Assembly: GCA_037441565.1 (NCBI GenBank)
Contig: JBBIRW010000005.1
Span: forward strand, 1,707-65,706
Reading direction: 5' to 3'
From: Deltaproteobacteria bacterium
GTDB taxonomy: Bacteria; Desulfobacterota; JBBIRW01
Length of the DNA stretch: 64,000 bases
Numbering within the stretch: the stretch's first letter is position 1; the number at the start of each line of letters is the position of its first letter. Positions 17,990-63,624 of this stretch are shown piece after piece. Both the position numbers and the translations under genes were made by a program. The notes beneath the pieces were generated by a model that searched no databases, was not told the origin of the DNA, and saw nothing but the letters and a program-made list of their open reading frames with translations.

Positions 17990-18961
17990 ATGGAAATAGA
18001 CGGAATCCATCTTTTAAGGATATCAACGCCTTTTCTTGTAGGTAATGTCAATACTTATTTAATAGTGTCTCCTGAGCCTACACTTATTGATGTTCCTCCT
18101 AATGACGAAATTTATATAAAAGAGCTTGAGGAGGCATTAAGAGAGAAAGGCTACCTGATAAAAGATATAAGAAGGATAATCATAACCCATCCCCACTTTG
18201 ACCACTTTGGTTCAGTTGCGAGGATTGTTGAGAAAAGTGGGGCAGAAGTATGTATATCCAGTGAGGGAGCAAGATGGCTTGAGGATTTCGAAAAAGAATT
18301 CATCGATGATGACCTCTTCTACAGGGACTTTCTTAAAAAGGCAGGGGTACCTCCCAGAATGGCAGAGTATTCAAGTAAACTTTACAACCGTGCAAAGAGG
18401 TTTGGATGTCAGGCAAGAGTATCAAAACATCTCACTGAAGGTGACAGAATAGCACTTTCATCAGGAAAGCTTGAAGTAATAAGCCTGCCCGGTCATACAC
18501 CATGGTGTATTGGTCTTTATGAATCTCAGAAGGGGATACTCTTTACAGGTGATTTTCTACTAAAAGAGATCTCCTCAAATGCCCTTTTGCAGAGACCATG
18601 GGTAGTTCCCTCTGGCTACAAGAGCCTGAAGGCATACATATCTTCGCTCAATAAGGCAAATGCATTAAATATTAAATTTGCCCTTCCAGGGCATGGAGAG
18701 ATTATAGAAAATCCTGTTGAAAGGATAGAAGAACTGCTCTTTTTTATTCCCAGAAGAAAACAGGCTATTTCTCAGATATTAAAAAGAAACGGAAAGATTA
18801 CTCCTTACGAGATAATGCTCCAGCTATTCCCCAACCTTCCTGATGAACAACTCTTCCTTGGTATCTCAGAGGTAATGGGGTACCTGGAGCTCCTTGAAGA
18901 TGAAGGCTCAGCTCGAAAAATAGAAAAGGGGTTAATTTACTTCTTACCCATCACCCCTTAG
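17990..18961 (+). CDS. MBL-fold metallo-hydrolase
   Basis: HPHFDHFG metal-binding motif. Downstream His and Asp ligands. Confidence 0.8.
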   Translation: MEIDGIHLLRISTPFLVGNVNTYLIVSPEPTLIDVPPNDEIYIKELEEALREKGYLIKDIRRIIITHPHFDHFGSVARIVEKSGAEVCISSEGARWLEDFEKEFIDDDLFYRDFLKKAGVPPRMAEYSSKLYNRAKRFGCQARVSKHLTEGDRIALSSGKLEVISLPGHTPWCIGLYESQKGILFTGDFLLKEISSNALLQRPWVVPSGYKSLKAYISSLNKANALNIKFALPGHGEIIENPVERIEELLFFIPRRKQAISQILKRNGKITPYEIMLQLFPNLPDEQLFLGISEVMGYLELLEDEGSARKIEKGLIYFLPITP

Positions 18962-19373
18962 GTCTTTTATCTGTCATCCGTGCAAAGGCAAGAAGGATAT
19001 CCCTGTCCGTTATGATCCCTACGAGTTCTCCCCTTGATACAACAGGCAAACAACCTATCTTCTTTTCAACGAGCATCTCAGCAGCCTCTGCTATGGGTGT
19101 TAGTGGAGTAACAGTAAAAGGGTCCCTCGTCATTATCCCCTCAATTTTCAAGTTATCAAGAAGTTCTATAATCTCTTTGACCTCCACTGAAATGAGCTTT
19201 GATGCAAGGGAATGCCTTACATCCCTGTCAGTCACAACACCAATGAGCTTTTTCCCCTCAACAACAGGAAGATGCCTTATCTGATGTCTATCCATGAGCT
19301 CCCTTGCTGTTTTTGCGGTGTCCTTCGGTGATATTGTTATTACCTTTGTTTGCATAATGTCTTTGACAAACAT
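18951..19373 (-). CDS. CBS-domain pair protein
   Basis: 140 aa, two CBS repeats (IRHLPVV..., IGCLPVV...). Confidence 0.8.
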   Translation of the reverse strand: MFVKDIMQTKVITISPKDTAKTARELMDRHQIRHLPVVEGKKLIGVVTDRDVRHSLASKLISVEVKEIIELLDNLKIEGIMTRDPFTVTPLTPIAEAAEMLVEKKIGCLPVVSRGELVGIITDRDILLAFARMTDKRPKG

Positions 19374-19376
19374 ACC

Positions 19377-20708
19377 TCACCTTTTTTTATCATTTTTTGC
19401 CCCTTTCATCCATTCATCCGGATTTTTAGGAAATACTTCCTCAACCCTCTTGTCAGTAATAAAAATCTTATCCTTTTTCCTGCTTGTCCAAACATAGATT
19501 TTGTCCTTATTTAGGGGATTTCCAATTGATAATATTACAGACTCATCGCTCCCATCAACATGAAAAATCGCCCTCAGGGATCTATCGGATATGCCGTATT
19601 TCTCAAGACTTTTCGGATTATCTACGATATCATCTGCCTTCCACCCCTTTAGTCTGACGATAAATGCTGAAACCCTCCCTTCATCGGCATCACCCTGTGA
19701 TCGAGATACAATTTTCCACCTTTCTCCTTCTTTCTTTACTTCTATCTTTCCATACCCCTTTACAATCTCGATCGATCTAATCCTTTCGGGGTCAAGATCA
19801 AAAATCCTTCTGTTTCTGAAATCAATTGCCCTTTTTGCTGCATCATTCCACGCTCCCTCCTCTACCCTTACAACCTCCCCCTTGTCCCTTAAAGCCGCAT
19901 AAACCCTCTTACCCTTCCTTGCCATAATGAGGTGTTTCTTCTCCCCATTTTTCAGTCCAATCTCAATCTCAAGACCTGGCCTGTCAAGTGCTGCTTCCTT
20001 CATGGAGATACCAGGATACTCCACCGCCCTTATCCCTCCAACCCTATAGATATAACTGAAAACCTCCTCCCTCTCCGCCCTCTCCTTTATAGGATGGACA
20101 AGCTCCCATTCATCACCCTTCCTCTCAACCAACACCCTTCCCTGTGGACCTTTAATCTTTATGCTCTCAATGTCCTTCTCCTTAAGTAGCAGGAGCCTCT
20201 TTTCCCTCCAGTCCTGAGGTCTTTTCCTTATGTACTGCTCAATACCTGCTTCAACGAGAACAATCCTACCCTCATCCCCCCTCATCACATAAACGCTGTA
20301 ACCAACAGGACTCCTCTTTCCTATCCTGAGTTCGATGGCTGAATCCTTTCCCATATTAAGCTTTATTCTTCCCTGCGGCTCATCCAGTCCATAATACGAT
20401 CGATTCTCTCCCTTCTCATCAACAACCTTCTTCACTGTCATAAGCTTCATTGTCGTTAACAGATCAGCAACAACTTCACCATCCGCCGTAGCATCGATCG
20501 GATCCGTAATCCTCCATGATTCACCCTCCCTCCTGAGCCTTATTCTTTCCTTTCCTGACTCAATGTCAACAGAATCTATCTTCTCCCAGATCAAATCAAA
20601 AAGCCTCTCTTCCTTTGCTGCTTTCTCCTTCTTTTCATAAATGAGGTAGTAGCTTAAAAGTAACAAAAAGACGAGCAGAACAGCTCCAATTTTCCAGATC
20701 CTCATCAA
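19377..20708 (-). CDS. DUF4340-like periplasmic protein, distal member of the GldG-type ABC operon
   Basis: 443 aa with an N-terminal TM anchor and repetitive beta-rich domains. It sits last in the ATPase-permease-GldG gene order. Confidence 0.5.
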   Translation of the reverse strand: MMRIWKIGAVLLVFLLLLSYYLIYEKKEKAAKEERLFDLIWEKIDSVDIESGKERIRLRREGESWRITDPIDATADGEVVADLLTTMKLMTVKKVVDEKGENRSYYGLDEPQGRIKLNMGKDSAIELRIGKRSPVGYSVYVMRGDEGRIVLVEAGIEQYIRKRPQDWREKRLLLLKEKDIESIKIKGPQGRVLVERKGDEWELVHPIKERAEREEVFSYIYRVGGIRAVEYPGISMKEAALDRPGLEIEIGLKNGEKKHLIMARKGKRVYAALRDKGEVVRVEEGAWNDAAKRAIDFRNRRIFDLDPERIRSIEIVKGYGKIEVKKEGERWKIVSRSQGDADEGRVSAFIVRLKGWKADDIVDNPKSLEKYGISDRSLRAIFHVDGSDESVILSIGNPLNKDKIYVWTSRKKDKIFITDKRVEEVFPKNPDEWMKGAKNDKKR

Positions 20709-23743: not shown

Positions 23744-23823
23744 TTTCTTACCCTATGATATTGGTCTCTTGATATTTAATGATCGATAAGATTTAGTGGC
23801 TGCCAGCCACTTAATTAAACACC

Positions 23824-24039
23824 TCAGGTTCCGCCATAACCAATCGTGATCCTTTCACCTTCAACAATAACCGGAACCCTTCTATCACCACCAGTGATTT
23901 TTAACATCCTTTCCAAACCCTTTGGATCATCCTTGGCATTAATATATTCAACCGTGTACCCCTTTTTCTTGTAGTCCTCACGGGCCTGTGTTGTATATGG
24001 TCAAGTATCCTTTCCGAAAATTATTACCTTCTTCTCCAT
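23824..24039 (-). CDS. Glutaredoxin-like small protein with in-frame UGA at the active site (candidate selenoprotein, U-P-Y-T motif)
   Basis: SD AGGAGG 7 nt upstream of the ATG at 24039. It reads MEKKVIIFGKDT-TGA(24001..24003)-PYTTQAREDYKKKGYTVEYINAKDDPKGLERMLKITGGDRRVPVIVEGERITIGYGG. The Grx fold is conserved on both sides of the TGA in one frame. The TGA sits at the first Cys of the Grx CPYC motif. It is missing from the ORF track because of the internal TGA. Confidence 0.6.
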
Positions 24040-24323
24040 AGATTTACCTCCTGATCAATATATCTTATCGGGGACATTCCTACCGCAATTGAAGAGATCT
24101 CTTGCACCTCTCACTGCACTTCTTTCCCTGAAGTGCCATCTGTTCCTGAGTGGGGCATGCGATCCCCATTAATGAACGCTTTATCCCGTGCTGTAACTCC
24201 TCTTCCTTGTAGAGCAGAACAATATTTATCTCCTGATTGAGATCAGGGCATAATATGTTCTTTTCTTCCGTTTTAAACATGATACTACCTATCTTTCTTA
24301 CTTTACCCCATTTTTGAAATTGA

Positions 24324-35042: not shown

Positions 35043-35360
35043 TTATTTCTTGTGGCACCTGTTGCAGGTTGCATTGTCGCTTGTTTTGAACGCCTTTTTA
35101 CCGTTGTGGCACTCACCACAGAACTTCCCCGCATTGAGATCAGCCATCTTCATCTTTGCCTCCCCAAACTTCATCTTGAAGATCTTTGGATGGCAATCAG
35201 CGCACTTCTGACCCTTGTTAGCATGAACCTTTCCATCAAATATCACCTTTCCAGCATCACCATCTTTCCACTCGAGGGTCTTTCCAGAACCTACTGCCAG
35301 GGCTGAAGTTGTAAAAGCAATGAGGAATATCACTGCAAATAACGAAATCGTCCTCATCAT
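35043..35360 (-). CDS. Periplasmic triheme cytochrome c7 (PpcA-like, cytochrome c3 superfamily)
   Basis: Signal peptide. Three CxxCH motifs (CADCH, CGECH, CNRCH) in an ~80-aa mature domain with bis-His spacing. Confidence 0.8.
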   Translation of the reverse strand: MMRTISLFAVIFLIAFTTSALAVGSGKTLEWKDGDAGKVIFDGKVHANKGQKCADCHPKIFKMKFGEAKMKMADLNAGKFCGECHNGKKAFKTSDNATCNRCHKK

Positions 35361-35640
35361 CCTTCACCTCCTTTCTTTGTTAGTGCCTCCAGACAAATGC
35401 CCTCTCTCTTTAATCTGGCTTCCTGTTATTTGGACGGATACGCTGGTATTTTATTTAAGAGATCGGGCATAAGTTTATACCATTACGGCTGTTATGTCAA
35501 AACAATATTTAACGCCGCAGGTTATTGAAAATATTGTGTATGGAGAGACTCAACAACCTTGGGAACAATAAAGATGTTAAGCGCGCTCTCAAGCTCCGTG
35601 GCAGGGCACAGGAAATGGAAACCCAATAAAGAAATAGGGA

Positions 35641-39380: not shown

Positions 39381-41459
39381 ATGAGTTATATTCGCGAGAT
39401 CTCCTCACTCATAAAGGATTTTGTATCAAGTCTCTGGGCACTTATTAAGAGACATAAAAAAGCATCACTTCTACTTGTAGGTATTATCATTACGCTTTTC
39501 TTAATCTTCAATGCCTCCTTCTATGTTCTCTCCTACATCCCCAGGTCCTGCATTATCTGCCATTATATGGATCCATACTATAAGCAGTGGGCAACATCAA
39601 GGCATAACAACATCAGCTGCATAAGATGCCATCCTTTCAGACCTGCTTTCATCACGGTTGCAACAATTAAATATCTAACGGGCATTTACAATCCCAGACC
39701 TCATGCCATAGTTGAGGACAGGAGCTGCCTTCAATCAGGATGCCATCCCGAGAGACTGCTTGAGGGAAAGGTTGCATTTAAAAATAATATAATCTTCGAT
39801 CATAAACAGCACGTTGGGACAATAAAAAGGGGGGAAAGACTCAAATGTGCATCATGCCATGCACAGATCGTTCAGGGAAAGCATATCTCTGTTGATGAAA
39901 GGGTGTGTTTCCTCTGTCATTTCAAAGGCGCACCCGCAGGGACAGCAATGACGGGTTGTCCATCCTGTCATGGGACTCCTGCAAAGGCTGTTAAACATGA
40001 GGGGTTCGTCTTTAATCATGATCCATATATAAAGATGGGAGTAAGGTGTAATCAGTGTCACATAGAGGTATCCAGAGGACAGGGATCTGTGCTTGAGGAA
40101 AGATGTTTCTCCTGTCATGTCGAGAGGACAGAGAAATATAAAGACCCTATTTTACTCCATCAGGTCCATGTAACAAAAAGGAATTATGAGTGTTTTAGCT
40201 GCCACGAAGAGATAATCCACAGGAGTATAAGATTTGTTCGAACGCTGGAAGTAAAATGCCAGTCATGTCATGAAACCCTTCATAACATGCAGATGCAGAT
40301 GTATATGGGTGTTGGTGCAAAGGGTGTTTCCGATACACCAAGTATAATGTTTGCAACACAGGTTTCATGCGAGGGCTGCCATCTGAAATCTGTTGAAAAA
40401 ACAGGCATCATGAGGGATCGTAGTAGGCATATACAGATCATAAGGAATTCATGTGTTTCATGCCATGGCAAGTCATACGCAGGTATGGTTGACACCTGGA
40501 TTCAGGAATCAGATCGCGTGTTCCAGCAGGTATCGCAATTTGTTAATTATGCTGATGAAATCATCAAAAACTATCCAGAGAAACAGAAAAGGGTTCGTGA
40601 GGCAAGGGATCTTATAAGGGATGCAAAATACAATCTCGTATTTATAAAAGATGGTAAAGCCGCACATAATGTGCAATACGCATTGAGGATCCTTGCAACA
40701 GTATGGGAACAGGCATCCCTTGCACTGAAAGCAGTAAATGCATCATACACGGTTGATAAACCAGAACTCATAAAATCACCCTCAGTCTACTGCAACACAT
40801 TATGCCACAGCAGGATTATCCCGGCTTCCAATGTTTCCTTTAAGGATATGGCAATAAAGTTTCCCCATCATCTACATTCAAATCAGATGGGTATTGAGTG
40901 CACACAATGCCATCCGGCTAAAAAGCACAGAGCAGGTATTGTTAATAAAAAGGGGTGTAAAGATTGTCATCATACACCACAGACAGCTACATGCAGGGGA
41001 TGCCACCCTTATCAGGATGCCATCTATCATGGGAATATGAATATTCTTGGTATCAAGGCGTCTCCAGACATAATGGCAAAAGGTGTTTCCTGCAGGGAAT
41101 GCCATGAGCTTAAGGAAGGCAAACATACGATTGATCTCATTTCGGCAAGATGCGTTTCATGTCATAATAAAGAGTACAGGGATCTACTCAATTCGTGGAT
41201 AAGAGAAATTAATGAATCGCAGGGAGCTGTTGAAATAAAGATTTCTCAGTTAAGAGAAAAACTGGGCTTACTCCGAAAGGCAGGTCTTGATACATCATCC
41301 TATGAAAAAACCTTATCAGAAATTGAGCATTCAATATCACTTTTGAAGAGGGCGAAGGGTGTGCACAATTACGGATTCTCAATGCAGGTTATTTCCAGCG
41401 CACGTGATTCCCTGGACAGATCCATTGTTGAGATACAGAAACAATTAACACAGAGGTAG
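39381..41459 (+). CDS. NapC/NirT-type membrane-anchored multihaem c-type cytochrome (about 18 haem motifs)
   Basis: N-terminal TM helix followed immediately by CIICH...CIRCH, the NapC/NirT quinol-dehydrogenase pattern. Sixteen more CxxCH or CxxxCH motifs across 692 aa. Confidence 0.8.
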   Translation: MSYIREISSLIKDFVSSLWALIKRHKKASLLLVGIIITLFLIFNASFYVLSYIPRSCIICHYMDPYYKQWATSRHNNISCIRCHPFRPAFITVATIKYLTGIYNPRPHAIVEDRSCLQSGCHPERLLEGKVAFKNNIIFDHKQHVGTIKRGERLKCASCHAQIVQGKHISVDERVCFLCHFKGAPAGTAMTGCPSCHGTPAKAVKHEGFVFNHDPYIKMGVRCNQCHIEVSRGQGSVLEERCFSCHVERTEKYKDPILLHQVHVTKRNYECFSCHEEIIHRSIRFVRTLEVKCQSCHETLHNMQMQMYMGVGAKGVSDTPSIMFATQVSCEGCHLKSVEKTGIMRDRSRHIQIIRNSCVSCHGKSYAGMVDTWIQESDRVFQQVSQFVNYADEIIKNYPEKQKRVREARDLIRDAKYNLVFIKDGKAAHNVQYALRILATVWEQASLALKAVNASYTVDKPELIKSPSVYCNTLCHSRIIPASNVSFKDMAIKFPHHLHSNQMGIECTQCHPAKKHRAGIVNKKGCKDCHHTPQTATCRGCHPYQDAIYHGNMNILGIKASPDIMAKGVSCRECHELKEGKHTIDLISARCVSCHNKEYRDLLNSWIREINESQGAVEIKISQLREKLGLLRKAGLDTSSYEKTLSEIEHSISLLKRAKGVHNYGFSMQVISSARDSLDRSIVEIQKQLTQR

Positions 41460-44971: not shown

Positions 44972-46402
44972 CTATCTGTTTACTGCGTATCTCCATATAT
45001 GGAGCAGTATCTGCAATATAAGACCTATCATCATGAATGGAATAAAAATTCTGTAAAATAGCTTCACAAGGAATACAAGTGGTGCCTTTTTGAGTGTTGG
45101 CTCATAATGTGATAACCATGCATCAGGAAAATTCTCTGTTGCATCAGGATGACACTTCATGCAACTTTTCACAAGATTCTTCTTCAATACATTCGATGAT
45201 GGTCCTGATGTTTTTGTTATATCATGTATGCCATGGCAGTCTGTGCACACAGCAATACCTTTGTCCGGTCTTACAGCCATGTTCTTTTCCTTCCGATAAA
45301 AGCTGAGTGTTATTCCATGAAAGTCCTGAAGGTAGTTGTTAATCACATCTGTTGATAGACCATATTTGGACATAATCTGTTTGTTTGAATGGCAATTACC
45401 ACATATCTCAGGGACTTTTTCCTTGTAATCAAAGGTCCTCGGATCCTCGATATCATGTGCTCTGTGGCAATCCGTGCATACAGGAACATCCTGATTTGAT
45501 TCATTTATAAGTGCATTTCCATGAATACTTTTTGCATAAACATTATATATATTCTCGTGACACCTTCTGCATCTCTTTGAACTCCATACCTTTTCAAGAC
45601 CTGCCCTTCCTATGGAATGGGAGCCGTGACAGTCAATACACACAGGCGCATTCAGATTGCCCTGGCTGAGCATTGTATAGTGAATGCTTTCCAGTGCCTT
45701 TGTATATTTATCGAAATGGCATCTCCTGCAGACCTCGGAGTTCGCAATCCTGAACTCCCGTTCATTCCTGAAATTCCTTTTTGGATGCTGGGATCTTGAA
45801 AATCCAAAATGGCAGTCCGAACAGCTCAACCTGCTGTGAACGGATTCCTTCAATACCCCCGAATCTATCTTCAAGACAATCCTTTCTCCGCTTTTAAATA
45901 ACATCTCTATATTATGGGCATGACAGCTCATGCAATATTCCCTTTCGTTTGAAAAAACCCTTCCACCGGAAATGGGGCTAACAGCATGTGATCCATGACA
46001 ATCTGTACACACAGGTGCCCTGCCCTCCCTCTCTCTTACGATAAGATTTGCATGAATATCCTTTGACATCAGTTGCTTTTCCGGATGACACTTCCTGCAG
46101 ATAAGAGCACTCTTTAATTTATATTCCTTCTTACTTCTAAATTTTCCAGAAGGATGATCTTCCATGGAAAAACCTGTATGGCAATCCGAGCATGTGAAGG
46201 AGGAGTGAACAGAAGATTTTAGTTTCCCTATATCAATAAAGACATCAATGGCTTCGCCATTTTCAAATTTCTTTATAATCCCTTTTTTTGAATGGCATTC
46301 AAGACAGGCAGAAACCTCCTCCGGAGTTGAAGAGGCTTCTGCCTTAATGGTGGACATCATCAATAGAATTATGAAAGCAATCAGTATTTTTCTCCTCAAC
46401 AT
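44972..46402 (-). CDS. Tridecahaem c-type cytochrome with C-terminal membrane anchor (CbcA-like)
   Basis: Signal peptide. 13 CxxCH motifs with internally repeated modules (SVHS...CSDCH(T/F)GFS...HP). C-terminal TM helix. Confidence 0.8.
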   Translation of the reverse strand: MLRRKILIAFIILLMMSTIKAEASSTPEEVSACLECHSKKGIIKKFENGEAIDVFIDIGKLKSSVHSSFTCSDCHTGFSMEDHPSGKFRSKKEYKLKSALICRKCHPEKQLMSKDIHANLIVREREGRAPVCTDCHGSHAVSPISGGRVFSNEREYCMSCHAHNIEMLFKSGERIVLKIDSGVLKESVHSRLSCSDCHFGFSRSQHPKRNFRNEREFRIANSEVCRRCHFDKYTKALESIHYTMLSQGNLNAPVCIDCHGSHSIGRAGLEKVWSSKRCRRCHENIYNVYAKSIHGNALINESNQDVPVCTDCHRAHDIEDPRTFDYKEKVPEICGNCHSNKQIMSKYGLSTDVINNYLQDFHGITLSFYRKEKNMAVRPDKGIAVCTDCHGIHDITKTSGPSSNVLKKNLVKSCMKCHPDATENFPDAWLSHYEPTLKKAPLVFLVKLFYRIFIPFMMIGLILQILLHIWRYAVNR

Positions 46403-48510: not shown

Positions 48511-48606
48511 TGGCGGAGAGGGAGGGATTCGAACCCTCGGATGGAGCTTTTACTCCATCAACCGCTTAGCAGGCGGTTGCCTTCAGCCTTACTCGGCCAC
48601 CTCTCC
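48511..48606 (-). tRNA. tRNA-Ser (anticodon GCU)
   Basis: Acceptor stem GGAGAGG/CCTCTCC, anticodon loop CUGCUAA, long variable arm, T-arm GGTTCGAATCC, encoded CCA. Confidence 0.85.
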
Positions 48607-48619
48607 ATAAATTATAAAA

Positions 48620-48707
48620 TGGCGGAGGGCGCAGGATTTGAACCCGCAAGGGCGCAAAGCCCGGTGGATTTCAAGTCCACTGCCTTACCAGGTTAGGCTA
48701 GCCCTCC
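48620..48707 (-). tRNA. tRNA-Ser (anticodon UGA)
   Basis: Acceptor GGAGGGC/GCCCTCC, anticodon loop CUUGAAA, long variable arm, T-arm GGTTCAAATCC, CCA. Confidence 0.85.
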
Positions 48708-61268: not shown

Positions 61269-61407
61269 CCCTTTCCCCTACCATTACATATTCTTCATCA
61301 AGCCACTTCCCGAGGTCTATGAGCTTGCATCTTTCAGAACAGAAAGGTCTGTAAGGATTGCCCTCCCATTCGACCTTCTTTTTACATGTTGGGCACTTAA
61401 CCTTCAT
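61228..61407 (-). CDS. yacG: YacG-like zinc-finger protein (DNA gyrase inhibitor family, DUF329), 59 aa
   Basis: Not in the ORF track. It reads [40 protein letters not shown]..., the CPxC...RPFCSxRC...DLGxW signature. Its ATG overlaps the TGA of the receptor gene (TGATG). Confidence 0.65.
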
Positions 61408-63302
61408 CAGAATTTTGCCGCCATCCCTATGAGGAAAGTTCTGGGGAGCGCAGGGAACCCCAGGGCTTCCTCATAGTTTTCATTAAGAAGATTCTCCACC
61501 CTCAGGTTTGCAACAAGCTCCCTCATTCTGTATGCGTCCCTTATCAATCTCCATCTTAAGGCAAAATCCACCTTCTGAAATCCCCGATTCTCCACAGGGA
61601 TAAAGGTTAAGGGATCAATATCCCTCCTTTCACCCACAAAGGTGGCATTGAGATTCATCCCTAAATCCGTTGTTACATCCCACTGAATCTGAACAAATCC
61701 ACTGTCATTTGGCCTCCTTAAAAGCTCCTCATCCGTTTCCCTATTGATACTCTTAAGATGGGTATAGCCACCGCTGATGGTGATCCCATATCCTGCATTA
61801 ATACTCCCCTCCAGTTCAAACCCTTCAGAAAGCGCCTTTGCTATATTCACAGGCTTTATACCAAATGGGTATCCCGGATCTGATGTGGGAACAAATGCAA
61901 TAAGGTCTTTAAAGGTCGTTCTAAAATAGGTAAAGCCGACTTTTCCCCTCTTTCCAAAGAAATACTGTTCCATTCCCACCTCATAGGATCTGCTTTTTTC
62001 AGGATTTAGATCAGGATTGCCGAACCCTGGAAAGAAGAGGTCATTTAAGGTCGGGGATCTGAAACCCTCTCCAATTGATCCTTTGAATTTTGTTCCAGTT
62101 TCCTTAATAAAATATGCACCGGATAACCTTGGACTTGTTACAGTTCCAAAGATACTGTTAAGATCCCATCTTATGCCTGGTGTAAAAGAAAGGGTTTCAT
62201 TCCACCCCACATGAGCTTCAAGAAAGTATGCCTTATTGATCACATCCTTGTCATAGGATGTTTCACCGAAAAATGGATCAAAAGCATTGAATTCACCACT
62301 CTGTTCTTCAAGCTCAATCCCGATTATTCCTTTTATATTTTTTGATAGATCAATGCTCCCTGTAATCTCCGCTCTCTTCCTCAACGTATCTGTGCTGGAT
62401 TTTGTCGAATAGAGAGGATCGTTGAACTTAATCCGATCATCAACAATGCTTACCGTTAATGAATTCCTCCACCAGTCTAACATCTTGTGATCGAATTTGA
62501 AAAGTAACAGTGCCGATCTTGTGTCCTGCTCCTGTGTGGGATCAAAAAACCTTCCTGCAACAGCTGGAAGCTCTTTCGAAGCATCATAAAATCTTCCCGA
62601 AAAGGTAATCTCAAGATCATCCCTGAGCTGACTCCTGTAAAGACCGCTGAAATACGTGCTTCCAAATTTATCATGATCAAGGGCACCATCCGTATCGAAA
62701 CGGGAAAGATCGAAGCTCCAGGAGCTCCCATCCTTTGACCCTTCAATAGAGGCACCCTCCCTGGTGGTCCTCAAATTCCCCGCATCAAAAAGAAGCTCCA
62801 CCGAGGGCCTCCCATATCCCTTCTTTGTTATTATGTTTATCACACCACCCATGGCCTCGGAGCCGTAAAGGGCACTCTGTGGCCCTCTTACTATCTCTAT
62901 CCTCTCTATATTTTCTGCTGGAAGCGTTGAAAAATCAAAGAGACCAGTTGTAGGGCTGTTTACCCTTACACCATCGATGAGAACAAGTGTCTGGTTCGAT
63001 GCTGCCCCTCTCAAGAAGATTGTTGTGAGTGAGCCCTGAGAGCCCTGCTGATTCACATATATACCTGGAACATTCCTGAGCACCTCTCCAACTGTTAATG
63101 CCCCCTGATTTCTTATATCCTCCTCAGTAATAACTCTTACAGAACTGCCCGTAAGACTCAAAGGTTCCTCAATCCTTGTTGCTGTAACAACAACCTCCTC
63201 CAGTTCCTTTATCTCCGATGCCTCACAAATTGTTAAAAAGAGCAGTTTAAGCATCAGACAAACAAGAAGGATAGATATCCTCTTCTTTTTACATCGTCCC
63301 AT
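61407..63302 (-). CDS. TonB-dependent outer-membrane receptor (BtuB-like cobalamin receptor)
   Basis: Signal peptide, TonB box EVVVTATR, plug domain, 22-strand barrel, C-terminal aromatic residue (AAKF). Confidence 0.85.
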
Positions 63303-63394: not shown

Positions 63395-63600
63395 TCGCTA
63401 TCTACCCCCTCCCCTCGGAAGGTTCGATAAACGGGTCAGGCCAGGTCTCCTGACTTACGGATCATCCTACTCTCCGCGCCTTCCCATCCACCTTGAAGTG
63501 GAAAGTGGCATTCTGCGGATTTCGTCCCCGATCACAGTTGCGGGGCAGTGAGGGATTCTCACCCTCTTCCCTTTACCGCCTATGGCGGTTTTACCTGACC
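63395..63600 (-). ncRNA. Cobalamin (AdoCbl) riboswitch
   Basis: The minus strand reads AAGGGAAGAGGGTGAGAATCCCTCACTGCCCCGCAACTGTGATCGGGG...GAATGCCACT...GTAAGTCAGGAGACCTGGCCTGAC. This matches the conserved GGTGA-AATCC, CUGCCCCGCAACUGU, B12-box GCCACU and AGUCAGGAGACCUGGCC elements. Confidence 0.85.
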
Positions 63601-63624
63601 ACTATGTTAAAGAACCTGTTTATT

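Follow-up and report, generated by a model that had tools for sequence, protein, structure and literature searches.

The gene at 23815..24039 on the minus strand of the 64-kb stretch of DNA analysed here (the window, at its full length) is best explained as a 74-residue member of UXX-star selenoprotein family 1 that combines a minimal glutaredoxin fold, two selenocysteines (Sec) and a hairpin at each of its two UGA codons, and taken as a whole we regard this reading as very probably correct. Family, motif and the presence of two Sec have all been catalogued before, since a curated NCBIfam model exists and a review lists the family as a UxxT protein with two Sec, and the gene is therefore an ordinary member and not a novel one. 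Our analysis adds one more Thermodesulfobacteriota member to UXX-star family 1, together with comparative data that amount to modest refinements of a known family and not to a discovery.

Gene structure and family membership

Direct reading of the sequence confirmed a minus-strand frame that opens at an ATG (24039..24037) and passes through an in-frame TGA at codon 13 (24003..24001), giving the translation MEKKVIIFGKDT-TGA-PYTTQ...GYGGT up to a second in-frame TGA (23826..23824). On the same strand this second TGA is followed in frame by GGT GTT TAA (23823..23815), so that, read to its first stop other than TGA, the frame comprises 74 codons, two of them TGA, and spans 23815..24039 (-). A preliminary description of the locus had given the gene an AGGAGG Shine-Dalgarno sequence and an ATG on the minus strand, and both are in place (AGGAGG at 24052..24047, 7-nt spacer, ATG at 24039..24037). 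It had also proposed a 71-codon frame; the start and the TGA at codon 13 stand, and the TGA that it took as the close of the frame is instead read here as a second Sec codon within 74 codons. The features of the locus are as follows, in the order in which the ribosome would meet them, with the basis of each in brackets.

24047..24052, minus strand: Shine-Dalgarno sequence AGGAGG, with a 7-nt spacer to the ATG (read from the sequence)
23815..24039, minus strand: complete coding sequence, 74 codons plus TAA, predicted product MEKKVIIFGKDT-U-PYTTQAREDYKKKGYTVEYINAKDDPKGLERMLKITGGDRRVPVIVEGERITIGYGGT-U-GV (match to NF041114; comparison with the closest relative, L001)
24001..24003, minus strand: first UGA (site 1), predicted Sec13, which opens the U-P-Y-T active-site motif at codons 13-16 (TGA in 28 loci, TGC/TGT in 84)
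23973..23987, minus strand: site-1 SECIS-like mini-hairpin, predicted and weak (Sec-type motif, rare codons, compensatory changes)
23824..23826, minus strand: second UGA (site 2), predicted Sec72, the third residue from the C-terminus (U-G-V-stop; conservation of TGA-x-x-stop)
23815..23817, minus strand: true stop codon, TAA (read from the sequence)
23795..23811, minus strand: site-2 SECIS hairpin in the 3' UTR (energy, pairing probability, presence across loci)

Profile searches were run on the 74-residue product with U written as C. The product matched NCBIfam NF041114, "UXX-star selenoprotein family 1", with 117.3 bits against an equivalog cut-off of 72 (E = 2.5e-34), residues 5-74 aligning to profile positions 1-70 of 70, and it matched the parent model NF041212 with 94.8 bits against a cut-off of 66. 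The NF041114 score was 9 bits higher with the U-G-V tail than without the last three residues. From Pfam, the general Glutaredoxin domain PF00462 alone passed its threshold (35.2 versus 22.9 bits), which, with the Grx/NrdH fold described below, bears out the initial view of a glutaredoxin-like gene. The full-length match to NF041114, the Sec-x-x-stop C-terminus and a UxxT motif that would bring the number of Sec to two, the last of these already noticed in the preliminary description, jointly point to membership in UXX-star family 1. The primary paper on the UXX-star families is reportedly that of Haft and Tolstoy in 2025, and the main text of the GOS paper does not name family 1. A 2026 review of the prokaryotic selenoproteome lists NF041114 as "Distant Grx-like protein 1", UxxT, with 2 Sec (PMC13188914).

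Compared with UXX-star family 1, the window gene shares the UxxT motif, the two Sec, the U-x-x-stop ending and the glutaredoxin-like fold, and differs in nothing of substance. UXX-star families 2 and 3 and the HUGP/GUXX-star fusion (NF041211, NF047338 and NF045501) have the same glutaredoxin-like domain ending in Sec-x-x-stop; against these models the window protein scores 57-60 bits, far below their cut-offs of 97-325 bits, and the gene has neither a fused nor an adjacent HUGP domain. Family 2 also has one Sec (GxGU) and not two (PMC13188914).

That gene callers would truncate the gene had been anticipated, and this is what is found for P0001, a 93%-identical relative whose only database entry is a 55-aa fragment running from one TGA to the other. 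More generally, public calls of close relatives are 55-58-aa fragments, and the family is routinely mis-called. For annotation, the locus would become one 74-codon coding sequence with two Sec at 23815..24039 (-), neither missed nor split.

Conservation of both UGA codons across related loci

A scan of species-representative genomes yielded 24 loci from Thermodesulfobacteriota, Acidobacteriota, Actinomycetota, Nitrospirota/Thermodesulfovibrionia, Deferribacteres and others. Both TGAs, followed by G-V-stop, are present in 19 of them, in at least five phyla and with conserved residues on both sides; in four others Cys at site 1 is combined with TGA at site 2, and a single locus (L022) has Cys at both sites. 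The pattern used for the metagenome scan demanded a Cys codon at site 1, and the 80 loci that it returned are thus Cys-type only and were used as controls. Site 2 is TGA in all 79 of these Cys13-type loci that are readable there, 72 of which end in U-G-V-stop. Eight further metagenome loci, whose products had been called with the TGA as Trp, carry both TGAs.

Across 112 loci the active-site codon is TGA in 28 (Sec-type) and TGC/TGT in 84 (Cys-type), with identical flanking residues. The Cys-type loci read GKDT-C-PYT at the matching position, so that the first TGA falls exactly where the active-site Cys would be, as the preliminary description had proposed. Beyond the TGA at site 2, the next in-frame stop lies two codons on in 108 of the 111 loci that have this TGA and three codons on in the remaining 3. 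Both in-frame UGAs are thus conserved coding positions; the hallmark is the predicted C-terminal Sec, which is nearly invariant, and at the active site either Sec or Cys is found.

The closest relative of the gene, L001, comes from a MAG of the Thermodesulfobacteriota, a phylum named among the most selenoprotein-rich, and over 6.2 kb it aligns collinearly with the window, at 91% nucleotide identity. The two selenoprotein genes differ by 9 synonymous and 3 non-synonymous changes. In the 12 codons upstream of the first UGA there are 3 synonymous differences and no non-synonymous ones, which indicates that the N-terminal stretch is translated in the same frame.

These comparisons bear on two readings in which Sec plays no part. 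Were the gene a pseudogene, or the sequence in error, the TGAs would be mutated or miscalled TGC or TGT codons, and indeed Cys-type relatives exist and one base change turns TGC or TGT into TGA. Both TGAs nonetheless recur in genomes and metagenomes of several phyla that were assembled independently, the gene is under purifying selection by the comparison with L001, and SECIS-type elements accompany the TGAs specifically. The recurrence in independent assemblies, together with the purifying selection, excludes both a sequencing error and a pseudogene, and we give this reading next to no probability. A genome-wide reassignment of TGA to Trp or Gly (code 4 or 25) would be in line with some metagenome pipelines, which rendered the TGA of relatives as Trp (P0016, P0033 and others). 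Against it, TGA ends 14 of the 38 long ORFs in the window, including those of RsmB, MnmG and GlgA, whose family matches extend to the profile ends, and the homologues have Cys at both positions and not Trp or Gly. Given that TGA is an ordinary stop in the window, codes 4 and 25 are excluded, and a reassignment is almost certainly not the explanation.

Some Cys-type relatives vary in their tail. In three MAGs of the Desulfobacteraceae (L011, L013 and L016), the GKT motif is followed by a four-residue tail, U-R-V-V or U-R-I-L, and then the stop; here the hairpin downstream, with a loop of the UGUAU type, is a weaker one.

A SECIS hairpin just past the stop codon

Three nucleotides past the TAA begins the hairpin AGUGGCU-GGC-AGCCACU, which has a 7-bp stem and a GGC loop starting 19 nt after the second UGA. 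It has an energy of -8.8 to -9.8 kcal/mol, and when the whole mRNA is folded the probability of its pairs is 0.81-1.0. The published bacterial SECIS (bSECIS) model calls for an apical loop of 3-9 nt, an upper stem of 4-16 bp, a G in the first two loop positions, a distance of 16-37 nt from the UGA and a minimum free energy of at most -7.5 kcal/mol (PMC13188914), and the hairpin lies within all of these constraints. Equivalent hairpins occur in 96 of 103 loci, compared with 5.3% of shuffles, at a spacing of 15-22 nt, with 36 distinct inner stems and loops that are mostly GGC, GGUC or GUC. The single difference from L001 turns a G-C pair into G.U and so keeps the pairing. The hairpin has no T-run and is thus not terminator-like, nor was it scored as a terminator. 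An Rfam scan of the window at gathering thresholds returned a cobalamin riboswitch and tRNAs only, and no SECIS family. The element after the second UGA is a canonical bacterial SECIS located just past the stop codon. The preliminary description, which had seen no convincing SECIS, was on this point incomplete, as the best one lies immediately 3' of the stop codon and outside the interval that it covered. Its interpretation is therefore partly supported: it was right about the active-site Sec and missed both the second Sec and the real SECIS.

A protein of 71 residues with a single Sec, in which the TGA at 23826..23824 is the true stop and GGT GTT TAA is untranslated and follows by chance, would agree with the use of TGA as a normal stop in this window and with database calls of Cys13 relatives, which end at GGT. 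It would leave the in-frame stop at two or three codons in all 111 loci, the G-V tail of the Cys-type metagenome loci and the inclusion of the tail in the NF041114 profile, with its gain of 9 bits, to coincidence, as it would the SECIS-type hairpin that 96 of 103 loci have within a set distance of 15-22 nt. Furthermore, L022, the locus with Cys at both sites, is without a hairpin at that spacing. We therefore consider a single-Sec protein very unlikely, and in what follows the second UGA is read as Sec72.

The stop codon two codons past this Sec-UGA is itself TGA in 39 of the 111 loci, including L001 (3214..3222), whereas the window uses TAA. In such loci two TGAs of opposite meaning, Sec and stop, lie 9 nt apart and are thus told apart only by their distance to the hairpin, which makes these 39 loci a natural test of how sharply SECIS spacing splits the two meanings of UGA.

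A conserved RNA element after the first UGA

The best local structure after the first UGA, at 23986..23973, is GG-C-CC GUGA GG-A-CU, with 2+2 bp interrupted by a mismatch or bulge and an energy of -2.1 kcal/mol. It pairs A17-U31, G18-C30, C20-G28 and C21-G27, or takes a neighbouring register with a GUGA loop. The loop, GUGA or CGUGA, starts 19 nt (or 18 nt) after the UGA, at about the same spacing as at site 2, and in this respect agrees with the bacterial SECIS consensus model. By the other measures the element is weak: its pair probability is zero in the whole-mRNA ensemble, RNAalifold gives about 0 kcal/mol, and it has neither an uninterrupted upper stem of 4 bp or more nor the energy of -7.5 kcal/mol or below that the bSECIS model calls for. 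The CCGUG...CACGG pairing that had been suggested as the recoding element does not hold up, being kept only in L001, enclosing a 22-nt loop and not being chosen by RNAfold.

Comparison across loci nevertheless sets this sequence apart. The motif CC-G[G/U]NN-GG at +18..+25 is found in 17 of 20 Sec-type loci versus 1 of 84 Cys-type loci (Fisher p = 1.5e-15, uncorrected for phylogeny). Among loci that share the residues A-R-x-D, the three wobble-type positions fit the motif in 18/18 of the Sec-type and 1/28 of the Cys-type. In the window gene the motif is written in the codons GCC-CGT-GAG-GAC, which are rare in this window of 42% GC, where GCC makes up 13% of Ala, CGT 3.4% of Arg and GAC 22% of Asp codons; the other four Arg codons of the gene are all AGR, and its other four Asp codons all GAT.

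In relatives of the A-R-S-A-Y subtype, the same alignment columns pair cleanly into a 5-bp hairpin whose loop is of the AGGUC type (-5.8 to -8.5 kcal/mol), and compared with this subtype of UXX-star family 1 the recoding hairpin is weaker in the lineage of the window. The subtype also contains synonymous compensatory changes, for example GCC-AGG-UCG versus GCU-AGG-UCA, both of which encode Ala-Arg-Ser. On the first 20 sequences covariation at site 1 was uninformative, because the pairs hardly vary, and it became informative only once the A-R-S-A-Y subtype was added. With 24 distinct sequences, 75% of cells pair and 8 cells have changed on both sides, and 0 of 500 shuffles match the observed pairing, the count of double changes or the covariation score. 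When the register is slid by +1 the covariation score is equal, so the register given here for site 1 is a candidate one. The motif, the rare codons and the compensatory changes show that the site-1 sequence is under selection at the RNA level. The predicted internal hairpin, of low thermodynamic stability in the lineage of the window, is preserved by the use of rare codons and by compensatory changes that are synonymous.

This weakness is one of two points in favour of a reading in which the first UGA terminates translation, the real protein starts downstream of it (compare the 55-aa P0001) and only the C-terminal UGA is recoded; the other is that gene callers yield such a model. The product would have neither strand 1 nor the active site. 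Conservation across phyla extends to the 12 codons ahead of the first UGA, which differ from L001 by synonymous changes only, and the Shine-Dalgarno sequence and ATG are correctly placed. Moreover, 84 relatives have Cys codons at exactly the position of the first UGA, and the motif that follows it is maintained by rare codons. A downstream start is accordingly hard to credit, and we give it only a slight chance.

Recoding at both UGAs, the reading that we prefer, would proceed by the standard bacterial mechanism: a separate hairpin follows each UGA, both times with 19 nt to an apical loop that begins G-G/U, and SelB.GTP.Sec-tRNASec would bind to it as the ribosome reaches the UGA, inserting Sec, and ribosomes that arrive at the later TAA would terminate normally. 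A variant of this scheme, which we find possible yet unlikely, is that the first UGA is decoded through the conserved 8-nt core CC-G[G/U]NN-GG, which at about -2 kcal/mol falls well short of the stability accepted for a bacterial SECIS, either alone or jointly with the 3' SECIS some 180 nt downstream. If this were the case, the 8-nt core would be a smaller or cooperative bacterial SECIS than current search models allow.

Predicted fold and putative chemistry

As a structural proxy we used P0033, a 58%-identical homologue that spans both recoded positions in Trp-substituted form, for which an AlphaFold2 model was built. The model (pLDDT 85.5) has the order strand-helix-strand-helix-strand-strand (E-H-E-H-E-E) and a low-confidence, disordered tail. 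The nearest solved folds are glutaredoxins and NrdH, including cGrx1 (7c10) and NrdH (1h75). The model contains no third helix, and the protein appears to end where the third glutaredoxin helix would begin. The glutathione-thiol site of glutaredoxins lies beside the catalytic residue and is lined by the cis-Pro loop and by the GG that follows strand 4; the cis-Pro loop here is VPV.

On this model, Sec13 would be the nucleophile at the N-terminus of helix 1. The flexible tail, which departs from the conserved GG behind strand 4, would place Sec72 beside the active site. Since Thr appears to stand in for the customary resolving Cys (UPYT), Sec72 is the obvious candidate partner for Sec13. The two may form a reversible intramolecular Se-Se bond, or a Se-S bond in Cys13 relatives, with the tail serving as a mobile resolving or shuttling arm. 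We infer that a reversible Se-Se couple between Sec13 and Sec72 is the most likely putative chemistry. The main alternative is that the two selenols act as a putative ligand pair for a soft metal or metalloid, and metal or metalloid ligation by UXX-star proteins has been reported as a suggestion (PMC13188914).

The Sec-containing glutaredoxin of Clostridium, CPYC glutaredoxins and NrdH have in common with the window protein the thioredoxin/glutaredoxin fold, a catalytic residue, Sec or Cys, where helix 1 begins, and the cis-Pro loop. Compared with classical glutaredoxin and NrdH, the window protein has UPYT in place of a CxxC/S active site, with Thr for the second Cys, no C-terminal helix and a second predicted Sec on its tail. 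Its scores against the classical models lie well under their cut-offs, at 34.6 versus 90 bits for GRX_bact (TIGR02181) and 34.2 versus 88.55 for the YruB-type TIGR02196. The Clostridium protein is UxxC in the account of Kim et al. 2011 that is cited in PMC13188914.

The arrangement of the tail invites comparison, by analogy only, with animal thioredoxin reductase, which would resemble it in having a Sec near the C-terminus on a flexible, mobile redox tail and a SECIS after the stop codon. The animal protein is a large eukaryotic flavoenzyme with a C-terminal Gly-Cys-Sec-Gly tail, a eukaryotic SECIS and decoding by SBP2/eEFSec. The partner of its Sec is the adjacent Cys, whereas the proposed partner of Sec72 would be the distant active-site Sec.

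Genomic context

The selenoprotein gene is preceded by def, fmt, rsmB, rpe and a tRNA-Pro gene and followed by genes for a GldA/GldF/GldG-like ABC transporter, a DUF4340 protein and a CBS-pair protein. None of the neighbours is shared across phyla, and the gene context offers no hint of function. ARAGORN found no tRNA-Sec in the 64-kb window, and an NCBIfam scan of its ten ORFs of the size of SelA, SelB or SelD found no selA, selB or selD, these ORFs being MnmG, BtuB-like, histidine kinases, PriA, GlgA, MqnC and others. A scan of the 64-kb window for other genes with in-frame TGAs revealed no second selenoprotein gene, only adjacent genes in the same frame or noise. One such candidate, a read-through of the CBS-pair gene (18954..19376, -) and the DUF4340 gene (19377..20708, -), was rejected as two ordinary adjacent genes with a TGA between them.

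A 66-aa ORF with four Cys (MFKTEEKNILCPDL...KKCSERCKRSLQLR) occupies 24080..24280 (-) and is separated by 40 nt from the selenoprotein gene downstream. Neither Pfam nor NCBIfam gave a match, and among the other loci only L001 has the ORF, with 97% protein identity. Since the nucleotide differences from L001 are nearly all synonymous, it is probably a real small gene.

Elsewhere in the window, tandem tRNA-Ser genes with anticodons GCT and TGA lie 13 nt apart at 48511..48707 (-). The cobalamin riboswitch (Rfam, 114.9 bits) at 63422..63613 (-) is directly upstream of a gene for a TonB-dependent receptor at 61407..63302 (-) that resembles the vitamin B12 receptor BtuB. Several genes for multihaem cytochromes c lie at 44972..46402 (-), 39381..41459 (+) and 35043..35450 (-), with paired CXXCH motifs, c7/c3-type features and an NrfH-like N-terminus, and these cytochromes fit an anaerobic, metal- or sulfur-respiring host from the Thermodesulfobacteriota.
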